Source: Syntrophales bacterium | Lineage (GTDB): Bacteria > Desulfobacterota > Syntrophia > Syntrophales > UBA2192 | Reading direction: 5' to 3' | Length of the DNA: 59,007 nucleotides | NCBI GenBank assembly: GCA_035685905.1 | Contig: DASRZY010000280.1 | Location: 1 to 59,007 of the forward strand | Shown: in pieces, positions 2,591 through 58,345 of the stretch | Layout: every line of letters starts with the position of its first letter | Position numbering within the stretch: position 1 is the first letter of the stretch | Translations under genes and position numbers: made by a program | Notes under the pieces: generated by a model | Database searches by the model: none | The model's input: only the letters and a program-made list of their open reading frames with translations | Told to the model about the DNA's origin: nothing

Positions 2591-4047
2591 TAGAGTTTCG
2601 GCCTCCTTCGTTCGATTCCGGAATGTTGCTCGTAGGCGTGGGCGACCTGCAGGAGCTTTCCCTCCTGGAAGTGGCCCGCCTGGAACTGGACCCCGATGGG
2701 CAGGCCCCCCTGCGTGTACCCGCAGGGAACAGAGATGCCCGGGATGCCCGCGAGATTCGTCGAGATCGTAAAAATGTCCGAGAGATACATCTGCAGCGGG
2801 TCGTCCATCTTCTCGCCGATCTTGAAGGCGGGCGTGGGGGTCGTGGGGGTCAGGATCACGTCGCAGGTCTTGAAGGCTTCCTGGAAGTCGCGCTTGATCA
2901 GGGTGCGCACCTGGGAGGCTTTCTTGTAGTAGGCGTCGTAGTATCCCGACGACAGGGCGTAGGTCCCGATCATGATGCGGCGCTTCACCTCGGGGCCGAA
3001 GCCCTGCGAGCGCGTCTTCTTGTACATCTCCATGAGGTCTCGCCCGTCGGTCGAGCGGTAGCCGTACTTCACGCCGTCGTAGCGGGCAAGGTTGGAGCTC
3101 GCCTCGGCCGGCGCGATGATGTAGTAGACCGCAAGGCAGTACTGCGTGTGGGGAAGCGAGATCGCGACGCACTTTGCGCCGAGGCCCTCGATGACCTGGA
3201 TCGTCCTTTTCACTGCGGCGTCGACCTCGGCGTCGATGCCCTCGATGAAGTACTCCTTGGGGATCCCAACGGTGAAGCCCTTGATGTCCTTGCCGATAAA
3301 GCTGCGATAGTCGGGGACTTCCGTGGGCACCGACGTGGACTCCATGGGATCGTAGCCGGCGATGGCATTCAGCATGATGGCCGAGTCCTCCACGTCCTTC
3401 GTGAAGGGGCCGATCTGGTCAAGCGACGAGGCAAAGGCGACGAGCCCGTAGCGCGAGACGCGCCCGTAAGTGGGCTTGAGGCCGACAACACCGCACAGCG
3501 CCGCGGGCTGGCGGATGGAGCCCCCCGTGTCGGAGCCCGTCGCGGCGATGCATTCGTCGGCCGCCAGGGCCGCAGCGGAGCCTCCGCTGGAGCCTCCGGG
3601 TATGCGCTCCAGGTCCCAGGGGTTGCGGGTGACGCCGAAATAAGAGGTTTCCGTGGAGGAACCCATGGCGAACTCGTCCATGTTCGTCTTGCCGACGAAT
3701 ACGGCCCCCTCGTCACGCAGCTTCTTCACCACCGTGCCGTCATAGGGCGGCACGAAGTTGTGCAGGATATGCGAGCCGCAGGTTGTGCGGTATCCTCTCG
3801 TGCACATGATGTCCTTGAGCGCGATGGGGATGCCGGTGAGCGGCCTGATGTTTCCCTTGCCGATCTCACTGTCGGCCTTTTTCGCTCCCTCGAAGGCGTA
3901 TTCCTTCATCATCGTGGTGAAGGAGCGGACCCGGTCCTCGACGGCATCGATGCGCTTGAAAACGTCCGTCACGATCTCCGTGGACGTGACTTCCTTCTTT
4001 TTGATCTTGTCCTGTAACTCGTGTATCGTCAGTTCATTCAGTCCCAT
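2590..4047 (-). CDS. gatA: Asp/Glu-tRNA amidotransferase subunit A (amidase signature)
   Basis: Amidase signature [14 protein letters not shown] prefer the ATG at 4047 ([11 protein letters not shown]), which has GGAG upstream; the track start at 4059 is a TTG. Confidence 0.95.
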
Positions 4048-4104
4048 ACTTGACTCCAAACTCTTTCCTTTTTGCCTGGTCCCTGCACCCCGGTCCCCGG
4101 TCCC

Positions 4105-4392
4105 TTATTCAATGACCTTCGGTACCCGGTAGCAGTTGCCGCTGTCGTCGGGGGCGTTGGCCAGTGATAGCTCCGGGGGGAGCGATTCCCAGACAACGTC
4201 CTCCCGGAAGGCGTTCTGGATGGCAATGGCGTGCGTCTCGGGCTCGACGCCCGTCGTGTCCACTTCGTTGAGTTTCTCCATGTAGAGAAGGATATTGTTC
4301 AGCTGGATGGTGAATTTCTCCTTTTCCTCTTCGCTGAACTCGAGCCGCGCCAGATGGGCCACGTATTCAACCTGATCCTTCGTGATCTTCAC
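4105..4392 (-). CDS. gatC: Asp/Glu-tRNA amidotransferase subunit C
   Basis: 95 aa, MKITKDQVEYVAHLARLEFSEEEKEKF. GTG start with GGAGG 8 nt upstream. Lies directly upstream of gatA. Confidence 0.9.
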   Translation of the reverse strand: MKITKDQVEYVAHLARLEFSEEEKEKFTIQLNNILLYMEKLNEVDTTGVEPETHAIAIQNAFREDVVWESLPPELSLANAPDDSGNCYRVPKVIE

Positions 4393-4460
4393 TCTTCAAT
4401 CCTCCAAGTAATGAAACCGCTTCATCGCGAAGCGGCATTCGATTTCCCTGTTTTCGTTAC

Positions 4461-4486
4461 CCTTTACCCTGGACCCTGAACCCTTT
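4461..4486 (-). repeat. dispersed 26-nt repeat (AAAGGGTTCAGGGNCCAGGGTA..), minus-strand copy
   Basis: The reverse complement, AAAGGGTTCAGGGTCCAGGGTAAAGG, matches 32130-32155 at 24 of 26 positions. Confidence 0.8.
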
Positions 4487-4505
4487 GGCCCGCCGCGAAG
4501 CGGCA

Positions 4506-5564
4506 TTATTGAAAGCACTTCCAGTATGGCTTGATCTGGCCGATCACCGAATCAATCGTCCGGTTGATGGACGCGTCGGCCTCGCTCTCGTGGCGCCTCA
4601 GATCCGCCTCCGTCACGCGGGTGGCGCTGCTCATTTCGTTGAGTACCACCCTGATGCCGTCCGTGAGCCCCCCGAGGTGATAACCGCCCTCGAGGACGGC
4701 AACGAACTTTCCGCCGCAGCATTCGTCGGCGATGTCCATGAGCACCCGGGCAAGCATCCCGAAGCCCGACGGTGTCACCTTCATGCCTCCCAGGGGATCC
4801 CGGAAGTAGATGTCGAAGCCCGCCGACAGCAGGATGATCTCGGGCATGTAATCGAATGCAAGGGGCTGGAGCACCCGGCGGAAAATCCGGAGATACTCGG
4901 CATCGCCGGGGCCTGTCCGCAGGGGCACATTCACCGTGAACCCCGTCCCATCGCCCCGGCCGATTTCCTGGAGGCTCCCGGTCCCGGGGTAGTAGGGAAA
5001 CTGGTGGGTCGAGAAATAGACGACCCGGGGATCCTCGTAGAAGGAATGCTGGGTGCCGTTCCCATGATGGAGGTCCCAGTCGACAATGAGGACCCGCCTC
5101 ATCTTGTGAACCTTGATGGCGTGCATCGCCCCGATGGCGACGTTATTGAAGATGCAAAAACCTGCTGCCCGGTTTGCCTCTGCGTGGTGGCCGGGCGGCC
5201 GGACGAAGGCAAAGGCGTTGCGCAGATCGCCCTTCACGACACCGTCGACTGCATTCAGAAACCCTCCAACGGCAAGCTTGGCGATCTCGTAGGACTCGGC
5301 GGAGGCCTCCGTGTCCGGATCGAGGTACGTATGGTCCTTTCCCGCAGACTGGGCAATCATCTTCACGTAGGAGTGCTTGTGGATCATCTCGATCTCTTCG
5401 TCAAGAGCGACCCGCGGTTTCACTTCCACGAATTTCCCAGCCATTTCAGGGCTTTCGAGCATCTTGTAGATGGATTCGAGCCGCTTGGGGGATTCGGGGT
5501 GGTAATGGCCCGTCTCGTGACGGAGGTACCGGTAATCCTTTACGATTCCAGTCGCCGAAGCCAT
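4506..5564 (-). CDS. histone deacetylase-family (AcuC/class II HDAC-like) amidohydrolase
   Basis: Motifs RPPGHHAE, FCIFNNVAIG and DWDLHHGNGTQ. I prefer the start at MASATGIV (ATG 5564), which has GGGAG upstream. Confidence 0.85.
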   Translation of the reverse strand: MASATGIVKDYRYLRHETGHYHPESPKRLESIYKMLESPEMAGKFVEVKPRVALDEEIEMIHKHSYVKMIAQSAGKDHTYLDPDTEASAESYEIAKLAVGGFLNAVDGVVKGDLRNAFAFVRPPGHHAEANRAAGFCIFNNVAIGAMHAIKVHKMRRVLIVDWDLHHGNGTQHSFYEDPRVVYFSTHQFPYYPGTGSLQEIGRGDGTGFTVNVPLRTGPGDAEYLRIFRRVLQPLAFDYMPEIILLSAGFDIYFRDPLGGMKVTPSGFGMLARVLMDIADECCGGKFVAVLEGGYHLGGLTDGIRVVLNEMSSATRVTEADLRRHESEADASINRTIDSVIGQIKPYWKCFQ

Positions 5565-18915: not shown

Positions 18916-19242
18916 TTACGGTGAAGGATACTTGTCCTGGAATTCATCCTTCTGCTTGAGATGCTCGGCCATCATGATCCGCGACTGGACGTCCTTTTGC
19001 CGCGCTTTCAGGTCTTCGAGGTAGGCCTCGCGGGACACGCCGGCCGGCACGGCTCCCCCCCCGTTCACCCGGTCGATTTCCTGATCGATCTTCAATCCGT
19101 AACTCTGCAGCTCGTCGGGCGACATGAACGTATCGCTCGTGGCGAGGATCCCCTCGGAATAGGGACGCGGCGCAGCGCACCCCAGCAGGAGCAGGATTGA
19201 CGCAATTGCGAACAGAACAGCCACCCTGAATTTCGTCGGCAT
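18916..19242 (-). CDS. small lipoprotein, unknown family (paralog A)
   Basis: ATG 19242 preceded by AAAAGGAGGG. Lipobox LLLGC. Paralogous to 19372..19713. Confidence 0.6.
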   Translation of the reverse strand: MPTKFRVAVLFAIASILLLLGCAAPRPYSEGILATSDTFMSPDELQSYGLKIDQEIDRVNGGGAVPAGVSREAYLEDLKARQKDVQSRIMMAEHLKQKDEFQDKYPSP

Positions 19243-19371
19243 AGAGACAACCCTCCTTTTCCATTTCCGCCCCGGGGGCATCGGATTCCCCGTCTTCTGA
19301 ACCGCGAAGTCCGCTTCCGAGTGTGTTCGCGGGGCCGGTCTCCGTGCGTCACGGGAAAACGGGAAACGCCA

Positions 19372-19713
19372 TCAGGGCAGGGCAAACGGGCTTCGCTGAT
19401 CGGATCGGCCCTTCTGTTCTTCGAGCCGCATCAGATTTCTGTCTTCGATCTGCCTCTGTACGTCGTAACGGGTCGATCGCAGGTCCGACAGGTAATTTTC
19501 CCGGCTTTCGCCGGCGGGAGCCGGGGCGCCCTTTTCCACCCGGGCGATCTCGTCCTGAAGAGTGACGGAATAGCGCTGAAGCTCCTCGGTGGACATCGTC
19601 CTGTAGTCCTTCGCCAGGACTCCCTCCGTGTAAACGCGCGACGGGGCGCACCCCGACACAAGGATCAGCAGGATGAAGAAATACAGCATCGTGCTTTCGA
19701 ACAGCTCCTTCAT
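19372..19713 (-). CDS. small lipoprotein, unknown family (paralog B)
   Basis: ATG 19713 preceded by AGGAGG. Lipobox LVSGC. It aligns along its length with paralog A (YxEGxLA..MSxxELQxY..DEIxRV..PAGxSRExYLxDL). Confidence 0.6.
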   Translation of the reverse strand: MKELFESTMLYFFILLILVSGCAPSRVYTEGVLAKDYRTMSTEELQRYSVTLQDEIARVEKGAPAPAGESRENYLSDLRSTRYDVQRQIEDRNLMRLEEQKGRSDQRSPFALP

Positions 19714-19962
19714 GGGTTGCCTCCTTTCGATCAATAGACGATCGTCATCATGAAAAGACAGCTTCAGTATACGTCCATGTCGCCCCGACTTCAATACCGG
19801 AGCGTGATGCCCCCTGATGCCGCATGAACCGATGTATGAGATCGAGAAAATGATTGGCACCCATCCCGAAAAAGTGTAGATTTGAACGTCCGATTACCGT
19901 CGACAGATCCGAGCTCTCCGATCCGAAAGCACGGATTGAACACGCGCCAGGAGGCACCCGAC

Positions 19963-21579
19963 ATGAAGCCGAGAACTTGTCTGATCCTCTCCATTGCGAC
20001 CGCACTGATCCTGGTTGCGCTCACGGGGTACACGGCCCCGCCGACGACCGTTGAACAAGTGCCCCGCCTGACAAAAGAGCAGGTCCGGGACATGCTCGGG
20101 AAACCCGACGTCGTCATCGTGGACATCCGCTTCATCAAGCAGTACGAACAGAGCGACAGGAAACTGCCCGGGGCGGTTTTCGTTCAGCCGGAACAGTTCG
20201 ACGAATTCGTCAAGAATAACCCGAAGGACAAGACCTACGTCCTCTACTGAGCCTGACCTCAGGAGTACACGGCTGCCCGGGGGGCGGTTGAGCTTTACAA
20301 GCGGGGGTACACAAAGGCATACGCCCTGGAGGGCGGGTGGAACGAATGGGTCAAGGCAAACTACCCCACGGAGCCCAAAGAGATTGCCTCTGCGAAGAAC
20401 TGTGTTCTCTGCCACACCGCCACAACTCCGGGGGTGGTCGAAGACTGGAAGTTGAGCAAGCACAGCCAGAAGGGAGTTGACTGCGCCGTCTGTCACAGCG
20501 ACAAGCATTATTCCAAAGAGACCGTGGACAAGGCCGAAGTCCCGGGGCCCGAGCGTTGCGCCTACTGCCACGGCACCCAGGTGAAGCAGTTCAAGGACGG
20601 CAAGCACGCCAAGGCATGGGCCGCGATGAAGGCCATGCCCACCTTCCACATGCAGCCCATGGCCCTGATGGACGGCATGAAGGGGTGCGGAGGCTGCCAC
20701 AAGGTCGGCATCAAGACGGATGAGGAGGTGAAGGAACTCAGAAAACGGGGAGGCCAGTTCGGGGTTGCCTCCTGTGATTCCTGTCACACCCGGCATCTCT
20801 TCTCCAGGAAAGAGGCCCTGCAGCCTCAGGCCTGCCAGACGTGCCACATGGGTATCGACCACGCCCAGTGGGAGATGTACTCCACCTCCAAGCACGGGGT
20901 GCGCTACCTCCTGAAGCAAACTGGCGTCATTCCCGAAAACGCTTCGGCCCCCACCTGCCAGAGCTGCCACATGTCAGGCGGCAATCACGGCGTGCGCACG
21001 GCCTGGGGGTTTTTGGCGGTCCGGCTTCCAATGCCCGAGGACAAGAAGTGGGCCGCGGACCGGACGACAATCCTCAAGGGCCTGGGGGCCCTGGACCCCG
21101 CAGGAAAAGAAACGGCCCGCTTCGGCGTACTCAAAGACCTCGACGTCTTCCGGACGACCCAGGAAGAATGGCAGAAAGAGCGCGACCGGATGTTCGCCAA
21201 CTGCCGCCAGTGCCACTCGCCCGAGTTTGCCCAGGGCGAGCTCGAAAAGAGCGACGGCATGGTCCGCGAGTCGGACCGGCTGCTGGCCGAGGCCACCGAG
21301 ATCGTGGCAGGCCTGTACCGGGACAAGATCATCACAAAGTCGCCGTATTACGCATACCCCTACCCTGACCTGCTCTCCTTCCACGACGCGCCGACGGCAA
21401 TCGAGCAGAAACTCTACCTCATGTTCCTGGAGCACCGGATGCGGACCTTCCAGGGTGCCTTCCATTCCAACCCGGACTACGCCCTCTGGTATGGCTGGAG
21501 CAAGATGGTCTCGGACATCACGGAAATCCGGAAAACGGCGGCGGACCTTCGGAAAGAAAAAAATGGGAAACGACGATAA
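19963..21579 (+). CDS. exported rhodanese-domain / octahaem c-type cytochrome fusion, putative selenoprotein with two in-frame TGA codons (20248-20250, 20254-20256)
   Basis: - Track ORFs 19882..20250 and 20434..21579 share one frame and are separated only by two TGAs.
- The gap translates to the conserved C-terminal half of the rhodanese domain plus an eighth CxxCH (CVLCH).
- Signal peptide MKPRTCLILSIATALILVALTG; CAGGAGG RBS before ATG 19963.
- 8 CxxCH motifs in total. Confidence 0.65.
20272..20288 (+). other. candidate SECIS-like stem-loop downstream of the tandem TGAs
   Basis: GCTGCCC-ggg-GGGCGGT (7 pairs including 2 G-U). It starts 15 nt after the second TGA and 21 nt after the first. 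Confidence 0.35.
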
Positions 21580-21597: not shown

Positions 21598-21921
21598 ATG
21601 GGATTCGTGAAGAGCATCGGTCATCGCATTCAGTTCGCCCTGGTTTGTGCCCTGCTGCCGGCCGGCCTGCTCATGATGAGCGGATGCCATCAAAACATCT
21701 ATTTCTGCGATAACGGAAAGACCATCGAGGCACGATACCAGATGGGCGGCGAGAGGGTTGTGATCGACGTGGACGATGGGGCCTTCACCCTTCCCAAGAT
21801 TCCCTCGGACACCGGGGCCAAGTACGGCGACGCAAACAGGTCCTTCTGGTTCAAGGGGGATGAGCTCATCGTCGAGACAGCGGGAAAATTCCCTTACGGC
21901 CGCTGCGCTCTGCCGAAATGA
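21598..21921 (+). CDS. MliC-family (lysozyme-inhibitor-like fold) lipoprotein
   Basis: Lipobox LMMSGC. The pattern Y.CDNGK...SDTGAKYGD...FWFKGDEL......C matches the MliC domain. It starts 19 nt after the cytochrome stop. Confidence 0.65.
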   Translation: MGFVKSIGHRIQFALVCALLPAGLLMMSGCHQNIYFCDNGKTIEARYQMGGERVVIDVDDGAFTLPKIPSDTGAKYGDANRSFWFKGDELIVETAGKFPYGRCALPK

Positions 21922-38918: not shown

Positions 38919-39461
38919 CTACTTCCCGGCTTTCTTCTTCGCCTCCGGTTTCGCCTTCCCTTTCCCTTTGGTCGCGACCTTTTCCAGCTCGCTCTCCAGC
39001 ATGATCACCTTCTTGAGTTCCTCAAAAAGGATCTTGTTCTTGGGCCGATCTTTAATGTTGTGAATGTCGATGTAGCGGATGATCCCGAACTTGTCGAGGA
39101 CGAATATCGCCCGCTCAGAGAAGCCTTCCTTCCGCTTCACGCCGTATTTCTTCGCAACGGCAGCCAGGGGGCCGAAGTCGCTCAGGAGGGGAAACGAAAT
39201 CCCTCCGAGACTCTTTGCCCACGCTTTCAGGCAGGGGACATGGTCGACGCTGATGCCCAGGACCTGGGCATTGAGCTTCTCGAACTTGGCCATATCGGCC
39301 TCGTACGAGGGAAGCTGATTCGTTCAGACCGGTGTCCAGGCCAGGGGGAAGAATGCGATGACAACGGGACCCTTGCCGAGGCATTTGCTCAGAGTCACCT
39401 TCGTGTCGAGATGGCTCGGCAGAGTGAAGTTGGGGGCCTTTTGCCCCACTTTCAACTTCAT
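38919..39461 (-). CDS. peroxiredoxin (AhpC/TSA-Bcp type), putative selenoprotein, TGA at 39326-39324
   Basis: AGGAGG RBS then ATG 39461. Translation is MKLKVGQKAPNFTLPSHL..VVIAFFPLAWTPV-TGA-TNQLPSYEADMAKFEKLNAQVLGISVDH. The TGA is codon 46, at the peroxidatic Cys position, in frame with track ORF 38919..39293. Confidence 0.8.
39276..39314 (-). other. candidate SECIS-like stem-loop
   Basis: On the minus-strand RNA: CUUC-c-CUCG-uacga-GGCC-gauau-GGCC-aaguu-CGAG-AAG. It starts about 10 nt after the UGA. Confidence 0.3.
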
Positions 39462-39657
39462 GTTCAACCTCCTTTATAATGGGATGGATTCGATTCAGAC
39501 CGGAATGAAAGTCTGCAATCCGATGGCGTGCATTCTAGCATGGTTTTGAAACAGGCTGAAAGAGTTTCTGCCTTCGCCTCCAGGCTGTTTGCAAATGCCT
39601 GGATGCCAGGCCCCAGGGGTCTCAAGGGGACGCAGCCCGGCATTTCCGAGAAGCCTT

Positions 39658-47974: not shown

Positions 47975-48514
47975 ATGATGACTCGACAATTCAGCGTAGG
48001 GCTTCTCCTCCTGATCGCGCTGCTGATGAACCCGCTGACGCTCCAGGCAGCCGGTCAGCAGGATCCCCTGGTCGGCAAGAAGACCGTCAATTTTACCCTT
48101 TCCTCGACGGAGGACCGGGCAATCAACTACGGATCGGAATACTACGACAAGGCTTTCCTGATTATCACGTTCTTCCCGGCGGCCTACACCCCCGTTTGAA
48201 CTGGCGAAATGCAGGGACACCAGGCGAAACTGGCTGCCTACGGGTCCCTCAACGCCCAGGTCGTGGGCGTCAGCCGAGACGACGTGCAGACCCTCCAATA
48301 CTGGAAAAAACATCTGAGGTTGTCCTTCCCCCTGCTGTCCAACATCTCCGGCTACCTGGGAAACTCCTTTGGTGTCGTGAAGGAGGGAAAGTTCCCCTTT
48401 GAGCGGCGAACCGTCATTATCGACAAGAAGGCAACCATCCACTACGTGCGGGACGGGTCGCCCGATTATGACGAGATCCTCAGGGTGTTGAAAGACCTCA
48501 ACGAAGGCAAATAG
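47975..48514 (+). CDS. exported peroxiredoxin (AhpC/TSA-Bcp type), putative selenoprotein, TGA at 48197-48199
   Basis: Track ORFs 47975..48199 and 48209..48514 share a frame. The junction reads FFPAAYTPV-TGA-TGEMQGHQAKL..VVGVSRDD. Signal peptide ends LQAAG. Confidence 0.8.
48211..48237 (+). other. candidate SECIS-like stem-loop
   Basis: GCAG-ggaca-CCAG-gcgaaa-CTGG-CTGC. It starts 11 nt after the TGA. Confidence 0.35.
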
Positions 48515-48577: not shown

Positions 48578-48886
48578 ATGAGAATGAAATCGCCGCTTCT
48601 GGTGCTGATCACCGTGCTGCTTGTCGTCCTGATCGGCGCCTCTTCCGCGATGGCCAAGATGCGGACCGTGCAGGTCATGCTGCCGAACTGCGAGTGACCC
48701 TTCACCCGGGACAGGGTCAGTTGGACCCTCACAAATGTCGTCAAGACGGAAAAGGTGGAAGTCAACGAGTACTCGCACATCGCGACGATTACCTACGATG
48801 ACGAGAAAACGACCATCGAACAGATTGTCAGCGCCCTCGAAAAGGCAGGCTTCCCGCTCGATGGCCCGCCGAAATTCCTGAATTAA
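48578..48886 (+). CDS. exported MerP/HMA-like ferredoxin-fold protein, putative selenoprotein, TGA at 48695-48697
   Basis: Absent from the ORF track because both halves are under 60 aa. AAAAGGAGG RBS. Translation is MRMKSPLLVLITVLLVVLIGASSAMA-KMRTVQVMLPNCE-TGA-PFTRDRVSWTLTNVVKTEKVEVNEYSHIATITYDDEKTTIEQIVSALEKAGFPLDGPPKFLN, with a beta-alpha-beta-beta-alpha-beta pattern like HMA/MerP. Confidence 0.6.
48713..48729 (+). other. candidate SECIS-like stem-loop
   Basis: AGGGTC-agttg-GACCCT. Six perfect pairs with a G/U-containing loop. It starts 15 nt after the TGA. Confidence 0.4.
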
Positions 48887-55138: not shown

Positions 55139-56509
55139 ATGATCCATCCCTCGCGCATACAACCGCTCAACACACGAAGCATCCAGGACGGCCGATATGT
55201 CCTGTACTGGATGCAGTCCTCCCAGCGAGTCGAGTGCAATCACGCGCTTGAATACGCCGTCGGCGCGGCAGACGAGCACAATCTCCCCGTTGTCGTCGCG
55301 TTTGGACTCACAGAGCGGTTCCCCGAGGCAAACCTGAGGCACTACACCTTCATGCTCGAGGGGCTCGAGGAGGTTCGCAAGGGGTTACGCCGGAGGGGCA
55401 TCCGTTTTGTGCTCCTGCGCCGCTCGCCCGAGCTGGCCGCAGTGGAACTGGCCCGGGAGGCCTCGCTTGTCGTTGCGGATCGCGGATATCTTCGAATGCA
55501 ACGCCAGTGGAGACGCCACGTCGCAAAGAACGCCCCCTGTGCCGTCATCCAGGTGGAATCCGACGCTGTCGTCCCCGTCGAGACGGCCTCGCCAAAGGAG
55601 GAATACACGGCCGGAACCTTGAGGCCGAAACTCCAGCGCATTCTCCGGGACTACCTCGTCCCGCTGGCGGAAAGGCCCCTGCGGAAGGAATCGCTCTCGC
55701 TGCCCCTCGACGTCGAAGGCGAGAATGACTTCCAGGCCCTGCCCGGGAGGATGGCCATCGATCGCACCGTCGCCCCTGTAAAAACCGCCCGGGGCGGTAC
55801 AGCCCAGGCCAAGGCCCTCCTGGGGGAATTCATCGCAAACGGGCTGCGCCACTACAACGATCTTCGCAACGACCCGGGCCTCGACTGCTCATCGCACTTG
55901 AGCCCCTACCTCCATTTCGGCCAGATCTCGCCCCTGGCCATCGCCCTTCGCATCAGCGGCGAGAGAGCCGTCCCCGCCGCGGCGCGCGATGCCTACCTGG
56001 AGGAGCTCATCGTGCGGCGCGAGCTCAGCATGAACTTCGTTTATTACAACGAGCGCTACGACGAGTTCGAGAGCCTCCCCGACTGGGCGAAAAAGACCCT
56101 TGCCGGGCATGCGAAGGACCGCCGTGAATATCTTTACCGCCCCGAGCAGTGGGAGCGCGCAGAGACTCACGACCCGTACTGGAACGCCGCACAGAAGGAG
56201 ATGGTCCTCTCCGGCAGGATGCACAACTACATGCGCATGTACTGGGGGAAGAAGATCCTCGAGTGGAGCCGCAGCCCTGCGGAGGCCTTCCGGACAGCCC
56301 TCTGGCTGAACAACCGCTACGAACTCGACGGGCGGGACCCCAACGGATTCGCCGGCGTGGCCTGGTGCTTCGGCAAACACGACCGGGCCTGGCCCGAGCG
56401 GAAGGTCTTCGGAAAGATCCGCTACATGAACGATGCGGGGCTCAAGCGCAAGTTCGACATGGATGCCTACCTGAAGAAGGTGGATGTCCTGGAGCGACAG
56501 AGCGGGTGA
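55139..56509 (+). CDS. phr: class II CPD deoxyribodipyrimidine photolyase
   Basis: YVLYWMQSSQRVECNHAL N-terminus. C-terminal HNYMRMYWGKKILEW and GFAGVAWCFGKHDRAW are typical of class II. Confidence 0.9.
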   Translation: MIHPSRIQPLNTRSIQDGRYVLYWMQSSQRVECNHALEYAVGAADEHNLPVVVAFGLTERFPEANLRHYTFMLEGLEEVRKGLRRRGIRFVLLRRSPELAAVELAREASLVVADRGYLRMQRQWRRHVAKNAPCAVIQVESDAVVPVETASPKEEYTAGTLRPKLQRILRDYLVPLAERPLRKESLSLPLDVEGENDFQALPGRMAIDRTVAPVKTARGGTAQAKALLGEFIANGLRHYNDLRNDPGLDCSSHLSPYLHFGQISPLAIALRISGERAVPAAARDAYLEELIVRRELSMNFVYYNERYDEFESLPDWAKKTLAGHAKDRREYLYRPEQWERAETHDPYWNAAQKEMVLSGRMHNYMRMYWGKKILEWSRSPAEAFRTALWLNNRYELDGRDPNGFAGVAWCFGKHDRAWPERKVFGKIRYMNDAGLKRKFDMDAYLKKVDVLERQSG

Positions 56510-56591
56510 GAACTGAAAATTCCTGTCGACTTCTCAATTATAAACAGGTATATAGATTGCACGAGCGTCGTAGGCCCTGGACCGCTGCGAT

Positions 56592-56618
56592 CGCCAGTGG
56601 CGACTGGCGGTTTTTTTT
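56592..56618 (+). terminator. intrinsic terminator after phr
   Basis: CGCCAGT-ggcg-ACTGGCG followed by G and then TTTTTTTT. Confidence 0.8.
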
Positions 56619-56647
56619 ATCGTAAACCCCAACTCTGTGTTGAAACG

Positions 56648-58345
56648 ATGATTCCCGCATATTCTCGAGAACTGATCCGTCTGCTGCTGCTCATTGCCCT
56701 GACCGCATGCTTCGCAAGCAACTCCCTGGCCCAAGTCCCGCCCGAGGATGTCCGAAAAAGCCTGGAGCGCTCCGTCAAGGCGGGCTCCGTCCAGAAGACC
56801 GTCTGCCCCGCGGCGCCCTACTGCAACCCCTCATCGGTGATCCGTTTTTACCAGATGCGCAAGTACGAAGCGGCCTGGACGCGGGACGGCTACCCGCTTC
56901 CCGCTGCGGAAGCTCTGGCAAAGGCCGTCAGAGGGGCCGATGCCGAGGGCCTGCAGCCCAGGGACTATCACCTCGAGCGCATCGAGTCTTCCCTCGGCTA
57001 CATCCGGCAGGCCCAGGCCCGGAACGAACAGCCGGAGACGGCAAAAATCATCGAACTGGAATTTCTCCTCTCCGACGCCTACCTCGTTTACGCGGCGCAC
57101 CTGCTCAATGGGCGTGTCAACCCCGAGACGTTCCATTCCGACGAGTGGACGATCTATCCCACCCGCTTCAATCTGGCGCAACATCTCTCGAAGGCCCTGG
57201 CCGGGGGGGATGTCGAAGGGAGCCTGAAGGGTCTCCTGCCGGCCCAGCAGGGCTACGGCAGGCTCAAGACGGCGCTGATCGTTTACCGGGGGCTTGCCGG
57301 ACGGGGCGGATGGCCCGTCATCCCGGGAGACGGCAGGCTCGAGAAAGGCATGAAGAACGACCGGGTCCCCGCGCTTCGCAGCCGGCTGAAGGTCACAGGC
57401 GAAATGCCGGCCACGGTGGACGGCACAAGCGATCTTTTCGACGAGGCCGTCGAAGAGGCGGTGAAGAAATTCCAGCTGAGCCATGGTCTGCTCGATGACG
57501 GAATCGTGGGCGCCCGGACGCTTCGGGCCCTCAACGTTCCCGTGGAAAAACGCATTCGCCAGATCGAGCTCAACCTGGAGAGATGGCGCTGGCTTCCCCA
57601 GAACCTCGGGAACCCCTATATCATGGTAAACATTGCAGGGTACGGTCTCGAAGTCGTCGAGAATGAGTCACCCGTCCTGACGATGAAGATCGTCGTGGGG
57701 ACGGCCTACCAGAAAACTCCCGTCTTCAGCGGGAAGATGACCTACATCGAGATGAACCCTTACTGGAATGTCCCCCACAGCATCGCCACGGAGGAAACCC
57801 TCGAGAAGATCCAGAAAAACCCGAAGTTCTTCGAAAAGGAAGACATGAAGGTCTTCAAGGCGGGGCCCAACGGAGAGATGGTCGACCCGGCCTCCGTTGA
57901 CTGGTTAGCGCTCTCGGAGAACAATTTTCCCTACCGGCTTCGCCAGGAACCCGGCCCCCGGAACCCCCTGGGTCGGATCAAATTCATGTTCCCCAATAAG
58001 CACAGTGTCTACCTGCATGACACTTCCGACCCCCAGCTTTTCCGAAAGGAGAGGCGGGGATTCAGCCACGGCTGCATCCGGATTGAAAAGCCAATGGAGA
58101 TGGCCGAGTTCGTCATGAGGGGCAGCAAGGAATGGTCGCGCCAGAAAGTCGAGGCGGTGCTGAAAACGAAGGAGACGACGGCGGCCTACCTGCCGAAACC
58201 CATTCCCGTGCACATCCTCTACTTCACGGCATGGGGCAATGGCGACGGGACAGTGCACTTCCTGGAAGATATCTACGGACGTGACGAGCGGCTTGACAGG
58301 GCCCTTCAGCAAAAAGCAAAGCCTGCAAGGGCCGCAAAGCCCTAG
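56648..58345 (+). CDS. L,D-transpeptidase (YcbB-like) with peptidoglycan-binding domain
   Basis: Signal peptide. PG-binding domain (AVKKFQLSHGLLDDGIVGARTLRAL). YkuD catalytic motif HDTSD...SHGCIR. Start taken after the terminator. Confidence 0.85.
   Translation: MIPAYSRELIRLLLLIALTACFASNSLAQVPPEDVRKSLERSVKAGSVQKTVCPAAPYCNPSSVIRFYQMRKYEAAWTRDGYPLPAAEALAKAVRGADAEGLQPRDYHLERIESSLGYIRQAQARNEQPETAKIIELEFLLSDAYLVYAAHLLNGRVNPETFHSDEWTIYPTRFNLAQHLSKALAGGDVEGSLKGLLPAQQGYGRLKTALIVYRGLAGRGGWPVIPGDGRLEKGMKNDRVPALRSRLKVTGEMPATVDGTSDLFDEAVEEAVKKFQLSHGLLDDGIVGARTLRALNVPVEKRIRQIELNLERWRWLPQNLGNPYIMVNIAGYGLEVVENESPVLTMKIVVGTAYQKTPVFSGKMTYIEMNPYWNVPHSIATEETLEKIQKNPKFFEKEDMKVFKAGPNGEMVDPASVDWLALSENNFPYRLRQEPGPRNPLGRIKFMFPNKHSVYLHDTSDPQLFRKERRGFSHGCIRIEKPMEMAEFVMRGSKEWSRQKVEAVLKTKETTAAYLPKPIPVHILYFTAWGNGDGTVHFLEDIYGRDERLDRALQQKAKPARAAKP

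Follow-up and report, generated by a model that had tools for sequence, protein, structure and literature searches.

The 59,007-nucleotide (nt) stretch of Syntrophales contig DASRZY010000280.1 analyzed here (the window, taken at its full length) carries on its forward strand what databases present as a pair of genes, a short rhodanese-like gene followed by a cytochrome gene. This pair is very probably one gene, coding for a single exported protein in which a rhodanese domain with two selenocysteines (Sec, U) is joined to an eight-haem cytochrome c. We consider it probable that the 538-residue fusion incorporates Sec at both of its in-frame UGA codons by means of one hairpin, and that it places a chalcogen redox site on a haem chain, a reading that rests on sequence comparison. 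The rhodanese-octahaem gene as a read-through fusion is a real observation, and the selenoprotein domain is a variant member of a known and curated family whose UxU variant was already known. What appears to be new here is the fusion to an octahaem domain of the hydroxylamine oxidoreductase (HAO) type and its wide occurrence, the systematic misannotation of the gene, and one conserved hairpin for two UGAs.

Reading frame and predicted selenocysteine loop

The complete coding sequence of the fusion selenoprotein occupies positions 19963..21579 (+) and comprises 538 codons, from an ATG with AGGAGG 8 nt upstream to a TAA. On translation, a single frame runs across the whole region and is interrupted only by TGA 20248..20250 and TGA 20254..20256 (codons 96 and 98, both predicted to specify Sec and referred to below as UGA-1 and UGA-2), in the context V-L-Y-TGA-GCC-TGA-CCT. 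An initial annotation of the window, made from the letters alone, had placed both program-called open reading frames (ORFs; 19882-20250 and 20434-21579, the second with a GTG start at 20434) in one frame with these two TGAs as the sole stops between them, and the translation agrees. It had also described the supposed gap at 20257-20433 as the C-terminal half of a rhodanese plus an additional CxxCH, and the Pfam Rhodanese match (PF00581; E 6.6e-15) indeed covers aa 38-131. A hydrophobic signal-like stretch, read from the translation, is found at aa 1-23 only (MKPRTCLILSIATALILVALTGY, 19963..20031, +), in line with the signal peptide previously placed at the N terminus alone, and it has neither a twin-arginine motif nor a lipobox. 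The predicted product would thus be an exported protein of 538 residues and roughly 60 kDa. The GTG-initiated ORF possesses neither the signal peptide nor haem 1, the motif of which (CVLCH) lies upstream of the GTG at 20434.

At every U-first locus sampled, that of the window included, gene callers arrive at the same two-ORF split. The public annotation 'rhodanese-like domain-containing protein' refers only to the 95-aa N-terminal fragment (P0121), and among the best 120 clusters at 90% identity that are homologous to the N-terminal half, all 120 end in ..[LF]Y, at the first TGA. A broader set, the best 150 representatives at 50% identity, includes 41 that end at the position of UGA-1 (position 0), 100 that end at that of UGA-2 (position +2; ..YC[A/S/..]), and 6 that are full-length and Sec-free.

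Both TGAs are kept at orthologous loci. The string Y-TGA-GCN-TGA-CCN is present in frame in orthologs L001, L002, and L003 (87, 76, and 65% identity, respectively), with synonymous variation on either side. One genome per species was scanned with a single peptide pattern taken from a 10-sequence alignment, which biases the sample to one sub-family. The 35 loci obtained belong to metagenome-assembled genomes (MAGs) of Syntrophales, Desulfobacterales, Syntrophobacteria, Desulfatiglandaceae, and Nitrospirae. Together with the earlier loci, these provide 41 distinct loop-region sequences, in which the second position is TGA in 41/41 and the first is TGA in 30 and TGY in 11; both codons are therefore retained in frame in 30 distinct sequences. 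Two independent assemblies of the same locus from other samples also carry both TGAs, one (L041) with 0 mismatches in 1617 nt and the other (L042) with 2 in 931 nt, neither of them near the loop, and these exclude the assembly errors that the initial annotation had named as a possible refutation. Differences from 13 orthologs in the 177 nt that follow UGA-2 number 303, 85, and 61 at codon positions 3, 2, and 1, respectively, and this concentration at the third position indicates that the stretch is translated in this frame. The recoding must be local rather than a global reassignment of the genetic code, since 21/36 long ORFs of the window end ordinarily in TGA, more than in any other stop codon. 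The earlier view that both TGAs have to be read through is thus borne out by the conserved frame and codons, by the coding constraint past UGA-2, and by the missing signal peptide and haem 1 of the GTG-initiated ORF.

The rhodanese part is a single-domain rhodanese of the NCBIfam family NF041203, the 'LYCAU' (seleno)proteins (20008..20379, +), scoring 143.2 bits against a cut-off of 115, with aa 16-139 corresponding to profile positions 3-126 of 126. The family motif is L-Y-C-A-U; the window gene has a TGA at the Sec position (20254-56) and a second TGA (20248-50) where the motif has Cys, giving U-A-U in a predicted active-site loop U-A-U-P-Q-E. In ungapped alignments to the solved rhodaneses 6mxv, 1yt8, and 2k0z, UGA-1 falls on their catalytic Cys, and the seven Sec-free homologs examined all have Cys at position 0, so that the initial placement of the first TGA on the catalytic Cys holds. 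UGA-2 is the Sec of the LYCAU/CxU motif. Recent reviews list this rhodanese-related family as a predicted selenoprotein that has one Sec, in a CxU motif (PMC13188914; the CxU family is also listed in PMC9312934), and the second TGA is accordingly the known Sec of the family. A UxU form of the rhodanese-related sulfurtransferase selenoprotein was reported in silico in 2007 from delta-symbiont metagenomes of Olavius algarvensis (PMC1976440), and with the CxU family curated as NF041203, the novelty implied earlier for a U-x-U loop does not stand.

Close relatives of the window gene have TGY-GCN-TGA at the loop, from which we conclude that U-A-U is C-A-U with a TGY-to-TGA point change at position 0. 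Two proposals of the initial annotation are rejected on these grounds, namely, a 2-residue insertion in the loop, which instead aligns without gaps to solved rhodaneses, and a hexamer duplication (TGAGCC/TGACCT), where the relatives point to a single change at position 0. A rough neighbor-joining tree distributes the Sec-Ala-Sec (UAU) forms over at least three clades, with one Cys-Ala-Sec (CAU) form nested within one of them, and LYCA is where a relative with 73% identity to the window protein ends; position 0 has thus changed between Cys and Sec repeatedly.

A hairpin resembling a selenocysteine insertion sequence (SECIS) is located at 20270..20290 (+), with a 5-bp core (20273-77 paired with 20283-87) and a G-rich apical loop (20278-82, CGGGG). 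It corresponds to the GC-rich stem-loop noted initially past the second TGA, and RNAfold gives -13.6 kcal/mol for a 29-nt stretch. The published bacterial SECIS (bSECIS) model specifies a loop of 3-9 nt, an upper stem of 4-16 bp, a G at one of the first two loop positions, a UGA spacing of 16-37 nt, and a minimum free energy of <= -7.5 kcal/mol (PMC13188914). The hairpin fits all of these constraints for both UGAs: its loop is of 3 nt (GGG) or 5 nt (CGGGG), its stem is of 8-9 bp in the window with the 5-bp core conserved, and the loop starts 21-22 nt past UGA-2 and 27-28 nt past UGA-1. In an alignment of 28 sequences (alignment A5), the loop G (G41) is invariant and the three apical pairs are invariant or nearly so, while the next two core pairs covary (GC:18/CG:7/GU:1 and UA:21/CG:6/UG:1); 79% of the cells are paired, compared to 25-54% with the partners slid. 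The register is the same in CAU genes, UAU genes, fused genes, and distant free-standing UAU genes with different stem sequences.

The simplest reading of these alignments is that one SECIS, evolved for UGA-2, also serves UGA-1 6 nt further off. SelB would decode both in-frame UGAs as Sec from the one hairpin within the coding sequence; the hairpin would have evolved for the ancestral Sec at +2 of a C-A-U form and, after the TGY-to-TGA change, would have come to act on the catalytic-Cys codon 6 nt upstream as well.

Octahaem domain and distribution of the fusion

The rhodanese domain leads directly into an HAO-family octahaem cytochrome c domain (20401..21576, +; aa 147-538), with haem 1 starting 8 residues past the end of the rhodanese profile. 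The eight motifs listed in the initial annotation are all present in the translation, and all are on the forward strand: CVLCH (20401-15), CAVCH (20482-96), CAYCH (20557-71), CGGCH (20686-700), CDSCH (20773-87), CQTCH (20833-47), CQSCH (20956-70), and CRQCH (21202-16). The best solved relatives in a PDB sequence search are kustc1061 (4n4j; E 1.3e-28), 6t5e, kustc0458 (6h5l), hydrazine dehydrogenase (HDH; 6hif), and Nitrosomonas HAO (NeHAO; 4fas/1fgj). Further hallmarks of this family are seven bis-His haems, one five-coordinate catalytic haem, and assembly as a trimer. The eight CxxCH motifs align one-to-one with those of kustc1061 (4n4j), the HAO distal motif CHMGIDH is conserved, and Pfam Multi-haem_cyto matches with E 1.2e-23. 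Of the earlier label 'HAO/Otr-like', the HAO half is therefore well founded and the Otr half is not, as the octahaem tetrathionate reductase model (TIGR04315) is absent from the NCBIfam hits at E <= 0.1. No ExtKL-annotated family matched in the NCBIfam scan of the fusion protein. In its C-terminal part, the domain most resembles kustc0458, a reductive HAO that has no Tyr cross-link to the catalytic haem (the cross-link marks oxidative members), and Tyr467, the cross-link residue of NeHAO, aligns with a Leu in ..NPDYALWYGW.., in a weak alignment with Tyr residues at -2 and +2. The cytochrome domain thus probably has no Tyr cross-link, as judged from this weak alignment of Tyr467, and cross-link-free HAOs reduce nitrite, NO, and NH2OH (PMC8042395).

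More than 6,000 homologous proteins score at E <= 1e-5 in a search with the cytochrome. Sampled free-standing homologs are ~415 aa long and 65-70% identical, and in these a separate signal peptide immediately precedes haem 1. One of these (P0053, at loci L043-L047) is followed by genes for a rubrerythrin and a metallo-beta-lactamase/ODP diiron protein, which hints at a role of the cytochrome family in oxidative or nitrosative stress. We also note that NF041198, the 'UshA-like (seleno)protein PCGU', weakly matches the fusion protein at aa 186-296 with the C-terminal portion of its profile (E 6.5e-5); this second selenoprotein family may also have a multihaem segment.

The fusion, as CAU or UAU, is recurrent in Desulfobacterota MAGs. 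The same architecture is found in L001-L003 and in 29 of the 35 genome-scan loci, and every UAU copy in the genome sample runs into an octahaem domain, with eight motifs wherever the contig allows and five in L007, where a frameshift or deletion (~3289-4900) removes the haem-6 motif and reflects a pseudogene or else an error of assembly. Among the CAU copies, some are fused (L020 and L022-L026) and others are free-standing (L029, L032, L033, and second copies in L035, L036, and L039). The last three loci are from Desulfobacterota MAGs in which the free-standing CAU rhodanese gene comes after a UAU fusion gene of the same family, no more than about 0.5 kb on (L035, 660-2744 and ~3253; L036, 2-1573 and ~2111; L039, 356-2077 and ~3244).

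A DNA-pattern scan of metagenomes returned at least 80 loci, and among the matches listed, 20 are true UAU rhodaneses and 60 are chance matches. Three of those 20 are fused and 17 are free-standing, and the rule suggested by the genome sample, that UAU implies fusion, is accordingly rejected. The free-standing U-A-U rhodaneses (e.g., IIFY-U-A-U-PAEAS) include those at L049, L056, L061, L063, L066, L071, L080, L106, and L126, among others. Taken together, the genome sample and the metagenome scan show that CAU and UAU forms each occur both fused and free-standing. A Sec-free, uninterrupted fusion also exists (P0118, 530 aa, with the loop LYCVQPSE). The NF041203 profile describes a free-standing single domain of 126 positions, whereas the window domain continues into the eight CxxCH motifs. 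The initial annotation knew of no characterized example of such a fusion, and we likewise found no mention of a rhodanese-HAO or rhodanese-octahaem fusion in the open-access literature.

Function and competing explanations

The proposed domain order is a signal peptide of the Sec secretion type, the NF041203 rhodanese, ~8 linker residues, and the HAO-family octahaem cytochrome c. By analogy with known sulfur- and selenium-handling proteins, we infer that the protein has, in the periplasm, a chalcogen redox site connected to its chain of haems. The U-A-U loop, lying in the periplasm, would form a selenolate/diselenide or Se-S(n)-Se center for which polysulfide, thiosulfate, or selenite could be the source of sulfane sulfur or selenium, and this center, tethered next to haem 1, may be reduced, or oxidized, via the haem chain. 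A more elaborate proposal is a self-contained two-site enzyme, with the diselenide/selenolate rhodanese at the haem-1 end and a catalytic haem at the other, which we regard as rather doubtful. If true, two-electron S/Se chemistry (sulfide, polysulfide, thiosulfate, or selenite) would be coupled directly to a haem reaction without a separate partner, and synthesis of the enzyme would rely on one SECIS for two UGAs two codons apart.

Several points weigh against a dual-Sec chalcogen redox enzyme. Position +2 is usually not Cys in the seven Sec-free homologs (S, K, Q, D, or, once, C), and a two-chalcogen redox couple is thus not obligatory in the family. The covariation counts of the hairpin overstate the number of independent events, since they derive mostly from one clade-level switch. 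An Rfam search of 20200-20360 returned no family at the gathering threshold or at E <= 10, a result that belongs with these points yet provides no evidence against a SECIS. Within the window, ARAGORN finds no tRNA and hence no tRNA-Sec, and a crude motif scan finds no SelB-type GTPase or SelD motif; the window has no selA, selB, or selD. At the loci inspected, no quinol dehydrogenase or other redox partner adjoins the fusion gene. The AlphaFold2 model of the Sec-free fusion P0118, computed without haems (predicted local distance difference test score, 62; predicted template modeling score, 0.48), is too poor to show how the domains dock. To our knowledge, there is no demonstrated case in which a single hairpin lets SelB act efficiently on two UGAs spaced by 6 nt, and in Escherichia coli the UGA-to-hairpin spacing is reportedly under tight constraint, which would also favor the decoding of UGA-2 alone, discussed below.

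It is possible, although we do not think it likely, that in the same protein the HAO-like domain is the main catalyst, reducing nitrite, NO, or hydroxylamine or detoxifying peroxide or N-oxides at a five-coordinate haem. The U-A-U rhodanese would then replace the external redox partner of haem 1 and feed in electrons from sulfide, thiosulfate, or thiols, or, alternatively, would contribute to periplasmic stress defense rather than to sulfur respiration. Haem 1 is the proposed electron exit in HAO, and a rhodanese tethered ~8 residues away is well placed for such an arrangement. The conserved CHMGIDH motif, the closeness of the C terminus to kustc0458 with the reductive activities of that cross-link-free type, and the 65-70% identity of the cytochrome domain to free-standing homologs that have no rhodanese all point the same way, as do the rubrerythrin and diiron ODP/metallo-beta-lactamase genes beside one free-standing homolog and the MsrA/B downstream of the fusion gene in L001. 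However, there are no nitrogen-cycle genes nearby, the neighborhood evidence comes from one free-standing homolog only, and we know of no precedent for a diselenide that exchanges electrons with a bis-His haem.

The remaining explanations concern the UGAs themselves and not the cytochrome. If only UGA-2 were read as Sec, UGA-1 would mostly terminate translation, acting as a selenium-dependent attenuator or yielding the 95-aa product as a by-product, or it would be read by a near-cognate tRNA as Cys or Trp. We consider this unlikely. The hairpin is tuned to UGA-2, being positioned as in the C-A-U forms, and position 0 switches readily between TGY and TGA; nonetheless, the position-0 TGA is kept in 30 distinct sequences from at least three clades and in at least 20 metagenome loci, a stop at UGA-1 would forfeit the catalytic residue and all eight haems, the UGA-1-to-loop distance of 27-28 nt is within the bSECIS range of 16-37 nt, and those who defined the family took its UxU form to be Sec-Sec (PMC1976440). 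An arrangement of two genes, or a decayed pseudogene, with a truncated rhodanese fragment and a cytochrome initiated separately at GTG 20434, is very improbable. It would match the split made by gene callers here and at every U-first locus sampled, but the 'intergenic' stretch is under in-frame coding constraint and encodes the C-terminal half of the rhodanese together with haem 1, the GTG product would have neither a signal peptide nor haem 1, an uninterrupted Sec-free fusion exists in P0118, and more than 30 genomes have kept the arrangement. That the TGAs are sequencing or assembly errors is next to inconceivable given the identical bases in independent assemblies from other samples and the same codons in dozens of orthologs.

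Gene neighborhood and comparison with known systems

The genes flanking the fusion are themselves conserved, and within the Syntrophales clade the arrangement recurs at a dozen or more loci. Directly downstream is an MliC-like lipoprotein gene (21598..21921, +), identified by Pfam MliC and by weak NCBIfam lysozyme-inhibitor matches, and at 11 related loci a tblastn match to it closely follows the fusion gene on the downstream side. Upstream and divergent are two small paralogous lipoprotein genes (18916-19281 and 19372-19713, -), the products of which are 43% identical to each other and have no family match; tblastn finds matches to these immediately upstream of the fusion at no fewer than 12 Syntrophales loci.

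The initial annotation had counted three other genes in the window with a TGA at a Cys position, and all three are found, which speaks for the use of Sec in this organism. Two are peroxiredoxin (Prx)-like genes, at 47975-48514 (+; TGA 48197) and 38919-39467 (-; TGA 39326), each with the TGA at the peroxidatic Cys (..FFP..TPV-TGA-T..) and a hairpin downstream, and both are likely Sec-peroxiredoxins split by gene callers. The third is an exported MerP/heavy-metal-associated-like gene (48578-48886, +), which has L-P-N-C-E-TGA-P at 48695, a CxU motif, and which matches the MerP model with E 6e-13, below the model cut-off. A further candidate, TGA 56507 (within 55139-58345, +), where a photolyase-like ORF is in frame with an L,D-transpeptidase-like ORF, looks like an ordinary stop rather than a recoded codon and is set aside.

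Because gene callers yield a 95-aa 'rhodanese-like' fragment and a headless cytochrome, recognition of the fusion would correct how a recurrent Desulfobacterota gene is annotated. For syntrophs and sulfate reducers, it also points to a candidate redox activity in the periplasm that involves sulfur/selenium (or nitrogen). A pair of UGAs at a 6-nt distance on one hairpin, together with repeated switching at position 0, constitute a natural system for the spacing tolerance of SelB, and the same system bears on why Sec is selected at the catalytic rhodanese Cys. The first multihaem selenoenzyme, MccSep, a polysulfide reductase of sulfur respiration, was characterized in 2026 (PMC13510729), and the fusion is a candidate for a second, unrelated architecture of Sec plus haem chain, suggesting that this design principle may be more general.

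Among selenoproteins, the closest relatives of the rhodanese domain are the NF041203 (rhodanese_LYCAU) proteins, which it resembles in its full-profile match above cut-off, its Sec at +2, its export, and the register of its hairpin; it differs in having UGA also at position 0, and hence two Sec, and in being fused to a 392-residue octahaem cytochrome. The Olavius UxU form (Zhang & Gladyshev 2007, PMC1976440) belongs to the same family and has U-x-U, with a second Sec that evolved beside the first, but the report is an alignment-level note in which the word 'cytochrome' is absent and which has no analysis of one SECIS acting on two codons. TsoB, the rhodanese/DsbD fusion-like selenoprotein (NF045694, PMC13188914), is likewise a two-Sec rhodanese fused to an electron-transfer module, but with a UxxxxU motif and a DsbD-like membrane partner, and the window protein matches its model with 21 bits against a cut-off of 805.

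The cytochrome domain is most like the reductive HAOs without a Tyr cross-link (kustc0458/HAOr, 6h5l, PMC8042395, and the epsilon-proteobacterial HAO), with which it shares eight aligned CxxCH motifs and CHMGIDH; its C-terminal helices are most similar to those of kustc0458, and, in the weak alignment noted above, its Leu aligns with NeHAO Tyr467. Unlike these enzymes, to which it is ~30% identical, it is 392 aa long rather than about 500-550, it has an N-terminal selenoprotein domain, and its gene has no adjacent dihaem or NapC-type partner gene. MccSep/ExtKL of Geobacter sulfurreducens, a pentahaem Sec polysulfide reductase (Mihara et al. 2026, PMC13510729), is also a periplasmic multihaem cytochrome c selenoprotein of the Desulfobacterota. 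Its gene, too, was wrongly called as two ORFs, on either side of an in-frame UGA, and it combines Sec and haems in chalcogen chemistry. It is, however, of an unrelated fold and family, with five haems and no rhodanese, and its one Sec is inside the cytochrome domain beside a Cys-ligated haem, whereas the Secs of the window protein are in the rhodanese domain. Sud of Wolinella succinogenes (PDB 1qxn) offers a functional analogy, as a single-domain, rhodanese-like periplasmic protein from which polysulfide reductase, a respiratory enzyme, receives sulfane sulfur, but Sud is not fused to its partner, a molybdenum enzyme, it has only one Cys, and the sequence similarity is marginal (E 0.18). The closest analogies for the function of the fusion would thus be the Sec-plus-haem polysulfide reduction of MccSep and the sulfur delivery of Sud.

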